Source: an uncultured Candidatus Saccharibacteria bacterium
GTDB lineage: Bacteria; Patescibacteriota; Minisyncoccia; UBA6257; 1-14-0-10-44-23
Reading direction: 5' to 3'
DNA length: 64,000 nt
Assembly (NCBI GenBank): GCA_964394435.1
Contig: CAYMXN010000002.1
Span: 142,196 to 206,195, forward strand
Shown here piece by piece: positions 32,645 to 33,735 of the stretch (the first letter of the stretch is position 1; each line of letters starts with the position of its first letter). The notes under the pieces were generated by a model. The model saw nothing but the letters and a program-made list of their open reading frames with translations. It did not search any database and was not told the origin of the DNA. A program made the position numbers and the translations under genes.

Positions 32645-32728
32645 GAGTTCGTAAGAGCTAACCCCGCGCGGTTAGCACGGCAAAACCAAGTACCTGGGGA
32701 GGTACGTCTCACGTATCTATAGATTCTC

Positions 32729-32760
32729 AAAATCCGGCTTCTGGCCGGATTTTGGTTTAT
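32729..32760 (+). terminator. Rho-independent terminator after nrdJ
   Basis: AATCCGGC-TTCTG-GCCGGATT followed by TTGGTTT. Confidence 0.7.
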
Positions 32761-32817
32761 AAAAAAAGAGCCCCGGTGCGCGTTGTGTTTGCGCACCGGG
32801 GCGAAGCGGCTGAGCCG

Positions 32818-33612
32818 CTAGAAGCTGAAAGTAACGTTGATTCCGGCGACGTATTCCGGGCCGTTGTCTTCGCGGACGAAGACCTTGCCGAGGATGCCGA
32901 CCGACACGTCGTTGGAGATTTTCCAGTCGAGATTCACGCCGACGACCAGCGTCGTCGGTCCCCACGTGTTGTCGCTCTGGCTGAGCTCATCGACGAGCGC
33001 CGCCCGACTTGAGAGCGTGACGCACTCGCTCACCTTCCAACTGGTCTTGAGCCCGGCGCTGACGCGGAGGATCCCGTCGTCGGCGCTCAGGTTCGGCAGG
33101 AACAGGTATTCGTCGAGCTTAACGAAGGGGGTGAGGGTGACGCACTCGTTCACCTTGAACGAGTGACTGAGCTCGACGTTGGGAGACAGGATGTCGCCCT
33201 TGGTCGCGTTCAGGTCGATCAGGTCGAAGTAGGCGAGGCTGCCACTGACGCTGAGCCAGCCGAGCTGGCTCGACCAGCTGATCGAGAGGTCGATCTCGTC
33301 GGCGTAGGTCGACGAGAGATTCCCGTCGTCCAGCCCGATCGACCACCACATGTTCGCCGACCAGCCCTTGCCCCAGCTCGCCGTCAGCGAGCTCTGGATG
33401 CACGGCTGGTCGCTCAAGACCACGCCGTTGTCGATGACGTACTGGTCGACCACCGTCTCGGACAGGCTCCACTTCACCGGAACCGGAGCGACCGCCACCG
33501 TCTCCGGCACGTTCATCACCTCCGGACGACCGAGGTCGTCCGCGAAGCCGGTGTTCGCACCGAAGAGTGAGAAGGCCGAGAGCAGAGCTACGAACAGGAA
33601 GGAAAAGCGCAC
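32818..33612 (-). CDS. Outer-membrane beta-barrel-like protein (signal peptide, amphipathic beta-strand repeats, C-terminal ...VTFSF), encoded in a GC-rich (~60%) island; GTG start with AGGAG RBS
   Basis: Signal peptide MRFSFLFVALLSAFSLFGA; alternating hydrophobic pattern and C-terminal aromatic residue typical of OMP barrels; local GC ~57-62% versus ~47% flanks; consensus TTGACT-N17-TATAAT promoter at ~33667-33695 (minus strand) and hairpin terminator at 32770-32806. Confidence 0.5.
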   Translation of the reverse strand: MRFSFLFVALLSAFSLFGANTGFADDLGRPEVMNVPETVAVAPVPVKWSLSETVVDQYVIDNGVVLSDQPCIQSSLTASWGKGWSANMWWSIGLDDGNLSSTYADEIDLSISWSSQLGWLSVSGSLAYFDLIDLNATKGDILSPNVELSHSFKVNECVTLTPFVKLDEYLFLPNLSADDGILRVSAGLKTSWKVSECVTLSSRAALVDELSQSDNTWGPTTLVVGVNLDWKISNDVSVGILGKVFVREDNGPEYVAGINVTFSF

Positions 33613-33735
33613 GCGATTCTCCTAGAAAGCGGGGTTTTCATACCCCTTTGTTGAAGTTCACTGACTATTATATTATAGCACTAATCTCTCATAAAGTCAA
33701 TAGGCAAAGTGCCTATTTATGCTGTTGGTTTTTAG

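Follow-up and report, generated by a model that had tools for sequence, protein, structure and literature searches.

A GC-rich gene for a predicted outer-membrane-type porin, probably acquired horizontally, between nrdJ and tRNA-Arg in a Patescibacteria chromosome

Putative porins of the TorF/Gcw_chp family (NCBIfam TIGR02001, Pfam PF09694) are proteins of about 250 amino acids (aa) from diderm genomes that share a signal peptide, a barrel and a terminal Phe; a literature search found no paper on a tested function of this family. Porins of the KdgM/NanC type form 12-strand barrels. Phage morons are reportedly laid out with their own promoter and terminator and with a deviant composition, as described by Hendrix and colleagues, and those of phage lambda encode envelope proteins, namely the lom outer membrane (OM) barrel and the bor lipoprotein. 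tRNA-associated genomic islands combine a deviant composition with a neighbouring tRNA 3′ end and a content that varies between close relatives. Patescibacteria, also called the candidate phyla radiation (CPR), account for a large part of the diversity of bacteria, and they live attached to other microbes; their uptake of metabolites from hosts is largely unknown, and their cells are held to have no BAM machinery. Here we describe a locus from a Patescibacteria genome, lying in a 64,000-nucleotide stretch of DNA (hereafter, the window), in which a GC-rich gene for a 264-aa porin-like protein occupies the slot between nrdJ and a tRNA-Arg gene. The analyses make it likely that this gene constitutes a horizontally acquired, self-contained single-gene porin cassette inserted in a CPR chromosome beside the tRNA-Arg 3′ end.

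The GC content of the full window was 0.467, and that of the interval 32645-33735, which a first-pass annotation had marked as a GC-rich island within surroundings of about 47% GC, was 0.585. The jump was real and stronger than had been described. The deviation was limited to the coding sequence (CDS) and terminator at 32770-33612, where GC reached 0.632, with a z-score of 6.6 relative to every other 843-nt window (mean 0.465, standard deviation 0.025). The highest value among those windows was 0.543, which places the island outside the normal variance of this DNA. Of the marked interval, the CDS and terminator were GC-rich and the left 116 nt (32645-32760) were native, so that the left boundary of the first-pass annotation was not supported. 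The open reading frame (ORF) at 32818..33612 on the minus strand had an overall GC of 62.5%, and its GC content at third codon positions (GC3) was 0.898, compared to 0.480 ± 0.057 in 50 other ORFs of the window (z = 7.3). The first and second codon positions were within the ordinary range (z of 0.1 and 1.1, respectively), so the anomaly was purely at synonymous sites. As had been anticipated for the overlapping six-frame ORFs, the other ORFs inside the island were the usual by-products of GC-rich DNA.

The codon choice of the gene was extreme: CTC and CTG made up 97% of Leu codons, GAC 95%, ATC 100% and TTC 92% of the codons for their residues, and GGC, GTC, TAC and CCG were also favoured. In contrast, the native highly expressed genes (those for S1, GAPDH, trigger factor, ClpP, FBA and PPase) preferred T-ending codons (TTT 84%, ATT 66%, GAT 64% and GGT 49%, together with TAT and GTT). 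The log-likelihood of the gene under native codon usage was lower than that of every native ORF (z = -2.8), so that the codon-adaptation check proposed by the first-pass annotation also put the gene outside the native range. When third-position synonymous changes were polarised by majority among three orthologues, 23 changes from GC to AT and 4 from AT to GC were counted (p = 3e-4), compared to 89 and 95 in nrdJ, indicating that the base composition of the gene is not at equilibrium and is drifting towards that of its host. The three orthologous copies still have a GC3 of 0.90-0.92. The coding sequence thus carries the codon usage of a donor of roughly 65-70% GC and is only starting to drift towards the host.

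A native gene that reached its extreme GC3 without any transfer, by codon-usage selection in a very highly expressed envelope gene, would account for some of these features. It would fit the strongest promoter of the window, the rate of synonymous substitution (dS), which is below that of the neighbours as expected when synonymous sites are selected, and the pattern at fourfold sites, where G<->C changes were as frequent as in nrdJ (0.15 versus 0.17) and GC-to-AT changes 3.7 times rarer (0.12 versus 0.43; Fisher p = 0.024, on small numbers). Distant family members in four other loci also had a GC3 above that of their neighbours (L073, P0009, 0.69 versus 0.46; L074, P0007, 0.64 versus 0.48; L076, P0003, 0.76 versus 0.63; L077, P0010, 0.81 versus 0.67). 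Translational selection in this host was nevertheless rejected as the cause of the high GC3, because the native highly expressed genes use the opposite codons. Neither does a native origin agree with the 23:4 ratio, which is not that of an equilibrium, with the slot lacking the porin gene in more distant relatives, with the failure to find a close homologue in any other genome, or with a relative that carries at the same site an extra pair of genes of GC3 0.90-0.94 missing from its sister lineages. We therefore consider a native origin very unlikely. Horizontal acquisition, which the first-pass annotation had suggested, is supported by the GC3, the opposite codon choice, the GC-to-AT bias and the absence of the gene from the slot in more distant relatives.

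The slot is bordered by nrdJ (30164-32644) on one side and by tRNA-Arg(TCT) (33735-33807, minus strand; ARAGORN and Rfam) on the other, the 3′ end of the tRNA gene abutting the cassette as the right limit of the variable slot. The nrdJ of the window was 97% identical to that of the metagenome-assembled genome (MAG) contig L010 and 55-78% identical to those of dozens of Patescibacteria MAGs (Harrisonbacteria, Paceibacteria and Liptonbacteria labels), some of them on contigs of 0.3-0.6 Mb. The rest of the window held the housekeeping genes of an ordinary small-genome chromosome, encoding KsgA, UvrD, PNPase, S1, FBA, ThyX, L25, RecA, FtsH, NusA, PPase, trigger factor, ClpP, TyrRS, a Mur ligase, RecG and GAPDH, and ten tRNAs. 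Judging from these genes, the host is a Patescibacteria chromosome (Paceibacteria, 'Harrisonbacteria'-like).

The flanks of the porin locus comprise nrdJ, tRNAs, a DUF378 gene, an SMR protein and an ABC transporter. The identical porin protein with the same flanks (in the order DUF378, tRNA-Arg, porin gene, nrdJ) was found on four Logan contigs, an 80% identical variant (P0002) with the same flanks on five more Logan contigs from three further run series, and a 77% identical variant in L010 (MAG CAZFZO010000010). In total, the porin gene was present at the same site in ten independent assemblies, that is, nine Logan contigs from four run series and one MAG; by lineage, it was present in that of the window, in L001-L005 and in L010. 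These junctions bear on whether the island could be a chimeric assembly, or high-GC contaminant DNA fused to a CPR contig. The composition does shift abruptly, within about 100 nt, at both ends, as such an artefact would produce, but the same junctions recurred in all ten assemblies with identical, 80% and 77% variants, and flanks and insert have co-diverged between lineages. This refutes a chimera, to which we give practically no probability, and provides the exclusion that the first-pass annotation had asked for. More distant relatives lacked the gene: no porin relative occurred in L011-L014 within 3-6 kb downstream of nrdJ (about 1 kb in L013), and L015 and L016 had, between nrdJ and tRNA-Arg, a PHP or a HIT gene with a GC3 in the normal range.

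L010 contained another GC-rich cassette (9531-10864), located between the porin promoter and tRNA-Arg and absent from the window and L001. It encodes a 182-aa lipoprotein (lipobox LVGC, GC3 0.90) and a 170-aa protein with a single transmembrane segment (GC3 0.94), neither of which matched Pfam or PHROGs, and it is equipped with a TTGACT-N17-TGC-TATATT promoter, a leader hairpin and a terminator of its own. The presence of this second cassette beside the same tRNA 3′ end indicates that the slot is a repeated landing site for GC-rich cassettes. In L012 (Ca. Harrisonbacteria nzgw427, a 602-kb contig), the region 10600-14493 contained minus-strand small ORFs of 127, 109, 162 and 243 aa with 60-78% GC, separated by lower-GC spacers, in a locus of 51% GC. 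None of them matched Pfam, and the run has the look of further GC-rich cassettes in the genome of a CPR relative. We also considered a three-gene module (porin, lipoprotein and transmembrane protein) common to L010 and L077, which was rejected because the neighbouring genes were not homologous.

Such an arrangement could also be what remains of a phage or integrative element that had the tRNA-Arg 3′ end as its target and carried the porin as a moron-like accessory gene, like lom and bor of lambda; the cell would then not have recruited the gene itself. The cassette abuts a tRNA 3′ end, and a single OM-barrel gene provided with a sigma-70 promoter and an intrinsic terminator of its own, in a composition unlike that of its neighbours, is the defining layout of a moron. 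Phage-encoded OM barrels exist, and the addition of a lipoprotein cassette in L010 recalls the lom and bor pair of lambda. Its position between the first cassette and the tRNA is the one expected from successive insertions, and the GC-rich run of L012 may be added to the list. Unlike phage morons, however, the gene lies in a CPR chromosome without a surrounding prophage and has no homology to Lom/Ail, which form 8 strands; no phage gene was found among the neighbours of the cassette, the query matched nothing in PHROGs, the porin-like gene had no match in INPHARED and none was seen in IMG/VR. A phage of a CPR host would also be expected to match the GC of that host. We regard a mobile-element cargo as possible though rather unlikely. 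Similarly, the locus shares with tRNA-associated genomic islands the deviant composition, the tRNA 3′ end and a content that differs between close relatives, and it differs from them in being about 0.9 kb long and consisting of one gene, with neither an integrase nor flanking direct repeats found.

The cassette itself has a complete set of putative expression signals, all on the minus strand. The sigma-70-type promoter TTGACT-N17-(TGC)TATAAT is located at 33672..33700 (-35 at 33700-33695, -10 at 33677-33672), and it proved to be the textbook promoter that had been proposed: it scored 11/12 with an extended -10 (TG), and no other sigma-70-like site in the 64 kb scored as high. The pattern TTGACN-N13-15-TGNTAWAWT (TGNTATAAT) occurred only here in the window, with 0.02 matches expected. 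Between the transcription start and the Shine-Dalgarno (SD) sequence, the 5′ untranslated region (5′UTR) contains a GGGG-N8-CCCC stem-loop (33631..33646). The proposed AGGAG was also confirmed as the SD sequence (33619..33623), 6 nt before the GTG start of the 264-aa CDS (32818..33612), which ends with TAG. It is followed by an intrinsic terminator (32761..32802), again in agreement with the first reading, with perfect 12-bp arms (32802-32791 and 32781-32770), a 9-nt loop and a T-run (32767-32761). These signals were maintained across the three lineages. Both promoter hexamers were invariant while the spacer was variable, the GTG start was kept and the SD sequence appeared as GGGAG in L010 and AAGGAGG in L001. 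The terminator hairpin was retained in both, and the leader hairpin, GGGG..CCCC in the window and L010, was GAGAC-TACAA-GTCTC in L001, where the sequence was altered and the pairing kept. The layout of promoter, leader hairpin, SD sequence and terminator was shared by the second cassette of L010 and by locus L077, in which the TorF-like gene P0010 adjoins the IF3 and L20 genes and has a TTGACA-N17-TATATT promoter and a leader hairpin like those of the window gene.

The first 24 residues (33612-33541) form a cleavable Sec-type signal peptide, assigned by eye (MRFSFLFVALLSAFSLFGANTGFA, followed by DD), consisting of MR, a 16-residue hydrophobic core and ANTGFA, with DD after the cleavage site. 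Ala24 was kept in 83% of the family members and in all orthologues, in which the cleavage site was invariant. The mature protein begins with a clade-specific N-terminal segment (DDLGRPEVMNVPETVAVAPVPV; DDLGRPEV.NVP...; aa 25-46, 33475-33540), in which 5 of the 22 positions vary among the three orthologues. This segment was predicted to be disordered (predicted local distance difference test, pLDDT, of 43-58), and most of the distant homologues align only after it. From there, strands with an alternating pattern extend to the C-terminus, which reads …INVTFSF in the window and …ASVSFSF and …ASISFSF in the orthologues, F262, S263 and F264 being invariant. As a β-signal, this end has the terminal aromatic residue and lacks the usual Gly at position -6. 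An internal 24-nt direct repeat (33013-33036 and 33133-33156, 92% identical) encodes …KV[NS]ECVTL… twice, 40 residues apart, consistent with a duplicated β-hairpin unit in which each copy has a conserved Cys.

An AlphaFold2 (AF2) model computed with the homologue alignment reached a pLDDT of 88.4 and a predicted TM-score (pTM) of 0.78, and DSSP assigned 12 long strands to it, the barrel covering aa 47-264. A Foldseek search of this model against the PDB returned 216 matches at E<=1e-3, and all 50 listed were OM barrels, including OmpG, NanC, the KdgM-type porin VhGalP, FapF, COG4313 and autotransporter β-domains; matches in BFVD were phage-encoded barrels, none of them specific. The protein is thus predicted to consist of a Sec signal peptide and a 12-strand OM-type β-barrel, as the first-pass annotation had proposed. 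The best size-normalised structural matches were the KdgM/NanC 12-strand porins (2wjq, NanC, TMt 0.68; 8xua, VhGalP, TMt 0.64), whose strand number equals the DSSP count of the model. Nevertheless, sequence identity to them was 12-13%, the query-normalised TM-score was about 0.54, and OmpG (14 strands), FapF and autotransporter barrels scored as well by E-value, so that on the predicted model this likeness is one of fold class and not of family membership.

In order to place the protein by sequence, we relied on an exhaustive phmmer search, which retrieved 389 relatives (124 at E<=1e-10) of about 250 aa with 25-37% identity. Among the best 100 of these 389, 46 matched Pfam PF09694 (Gcw_chp) and 26 matched NCBIfam TIGR02001 ('TorF family putative porin'). 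The direct homologues P0004, P0006, P0010 and P0011 (phmmer E of 1.9e-21, 7.7e-21, 3.8e-20 and 4.0e-20, respectively) scored 25-32.5 bits against a Pfam cut-off of 24; overall, pairwise homology to proteins that pass this cut-off was at E 1e-20 to 1e-22 and 32-37% identity. By BLASTP, the query and P0010 were 35% identical over 217 aa (E 8e-30), in an alignment that reached the last Phe. The query kept 16 of the 25 family positions conserved at >=80%, including the terminal Phe, and its losses were in the C-terminal third. It shares with the family the length, the signal peptide, the barrel and the terminal Phe. It differs in that the query and its two orthologues match neither family model, the C-terminal third has diverged, the aligned part is preceded by a conserved N-terminal segment of 22 aa, and the gene resides in a CPR genome whereas the family belongs to diderm genomes. 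A word-index protein search with the query returned only itself and one orthologue, and its profile version added little. By these homologies, the protein belongs near the TorF/Gcw_chp putative porins of diderm bacteria as a divergent relative, and not with the OmpA, OmpW or MipA type guessed at first.

Several observations weigh against the interpretation of the locus as a horizontally acquired porin cassette. The query itself had no Pfam, NCBIfam or PDB sequence-model match even at E 10, so that the link to TorF/Gcw_chp, made only via the homologues, is transitive. The donor was not found, the nearest non-orthologue among 15 billion proteins being at most 37% identical; tblastn against plasmids and phages gave no match, and no relative appeared in genome contigs, JGI metagenome contigs or IMG/VR, although these were searched with exact-peptide patterns that missed the 77% L010 orthologue and hence are weak negatives. 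No integrase was found among the neighbours, nor an att-like direct repeat of the tRNA 3′ end. The promoter and leader (33613-33734) are AT-rich (GC 0.37), unlike high-GC DNA, and the cassette may therefore be a foreign CDS joined to host-type signals. The dS of the porin gene (0.22-0.35) was below that of the flanking native genes (0.5-1.2) and its GC3 has hardly fallen, which a simple, single and old acquisition does not predict. Predicted strands had no significant deficit of substitutions relative to loops (0.25 versus 0.32, p = 0.26). Among about 40 ORFs of the window scanned with Pfam, there was no OM-biogenesis gene, but these represent a part of the genome only, and an OM machinery may be encoded elsewhere in it. 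Finally, expression, export and membrane insertion are deduced from the sequence and the predicted structure. Regarding the low dS and the high GC3, the porin gene may be one in which synonymous changes towards AT are resisted; alternatively, part of its divergence may have been acquired in a high-GC background, either because alleles were replaced or because it spread later via the near-identical flanks. The divergence of nrdJ did not form a gradient towards the island, and a selective sweep or recent spread is thus neither supported nor excluded.

The orthologues were 77-80% identical in amino acids, with an intact ORF in three lineages. Their dN/dS was 0.33-0.40, from 49 synonymous and 62-74 non-synonymous differences (in one pair, 49 on 183 synonymous sites and 74 on 603 non-synonymous sites), while that of the neighbours was 0.01-0.08, and the dN of the porin gene was 5-10 times theirs. 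These ratios indicate that the gene is under purifying selection, much weaker than that on the neighbours. Most strands were conserved between orthologues, as were the signal-peptidase site and the C-terminal F-x-F. Together with the 389 homologues and the confident predicted fold, these data establish the minus-strand ORF at 32818..33612 as the real gene, as first annotated. The weakness of the selection, the fast amino-acid change and the lack of a contrast between strands and loops are what a functionless passenger would present, that is, a recently captured gene, unusable without an OM and not yet decayed. That CPR bacteria take up foreign DNA as a source of nucleotides (PMC12857230) likewise speaks for a passenger. 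Nonetheless, the ORF has stayed intact across lineages separated by a dS of 0.22-0.35, with a dN/dS well below 1. Moreover, the promoter hexamers, the SD sequence and the GTG were conserved, the 5′ hairpin kept its pairing despite sequence change, and the cleavage site and F-x-F were invariant. A passenger is, on this evidence, an improbable explanation.

CPR bacteria are described as monoderm, without an OM (PMC6744442, PMC12857230), and an OM-type porin gene is therefore unexpected in this host; the first-pass annotation had made the same point for the case of a monoderm. According to the interpretation as an acquired cassette, the promoter, leader hairpin, SD sequence, CDS and terminator would have been captured as foreign DNA in the variable slot between nrdJ and tRNA-Arg. 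The cassette would be transcribed on its own and its mRNA stabilised by the 5′ hairpin. The precursor would be exported by Sec and cut after Ala24, and the mature chain would form a passive channel by folding in a lipid bilayer that lies outside the cytoplasmic membrane. Our preferred guess for this bilayer, made with low confidence, is the OM of a diderm host at the contact site; it could also be an outer layer of the CPR cell that has so far gone unrecognised, or the protein might have a membrane-independent role. A more specific and speculative proposal, which we consider unlikely, is that of a feeding pore: the CPR cell would export the barrel into the OM of its diderm host, where, at the contact site, it would open the periplasm of the host to diffusion, in effect as a 'borrowed' porin. 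The gene would in this case have been captured from a high-GC host lineage, and its GC may have been kept high by repeated replacement with host alleles through DNA uptake. If true, a feeding pore would account for an OM-type protein with an intact β-signal in a cell free of an OM, for the strong promoter combined with fast protein evolution (dN 5-10 times that of the neighbours), and for the clade-specific N-terminal segment and the few AT-ward synonymous changes.

The left limit of the insert is formed by a native non-coding element 3′ of nrdJ (32645..32760, plus strand), which includes the nrdJ terminator hairpin (32728-32754). These 116 nt after the nrdJ stop (GC 0.50) were 99-100% identical in the window, L001 and L010, three lineages between which nrdJ has a dS of 0.6-0.95. 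A core motif, GGCAAAAYYA-N-CTGGGGAG, which corresponds to a hairpin with a GGGG loop and a covarying stem, was also present 3′ of nrdJ in L011-L014, which have no porin gene. The conservation of the stretch and the presence of its motif in these porin-free relatives indicate that it is native and that the foreign DNA begins at about 32765. The stretch matched no Rfam family, and its fold z-score was -3.1 on the plus strand and -4.5 on the minus strand; it is a candidate 3′UTR element or small RNA. On the other side of the slot, the intergenic DNA and tRNA flanks at 33801-34400 were 94-98% identical to those of L010 and L001, with coding synonymous sites half saturated. The non-coding DNA of these small genomes is more strongly constrained than synonymous sites.

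Two further features of the window were recorded. A 2908-aa protein (19385-28111, minus strand) similar to cyclic β-1,2-glucan synthases presented the GH94 supersandwich, catalytic and glucoamylase-like domains of the Cgs/NdvB/ChvB architecture, and its GC3 was native (0.47). Enzymes of this type are best known from the periplasmic glucans of Proteobacteria. In addition, a tRNA-Ile with the anticodon TAT (UAU) was located at 41111-41183 on the plus strand, adjoining tRNA-Val(TAC); such a tRNA-Ile is uncommon in bacteria.

Altogether, these results extend the uncharacterised TorF/Gcw_chp family beyond the reach of its models. The locus constitutes a natural example of gene capture beside a tRNA, with a measurable drift of base composition towards the host. 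For the biology of Patescibacteria, it offers a concrete candidate for a host-interface protein, or else a sign that some CPR envelopes may be less simple than assumed.

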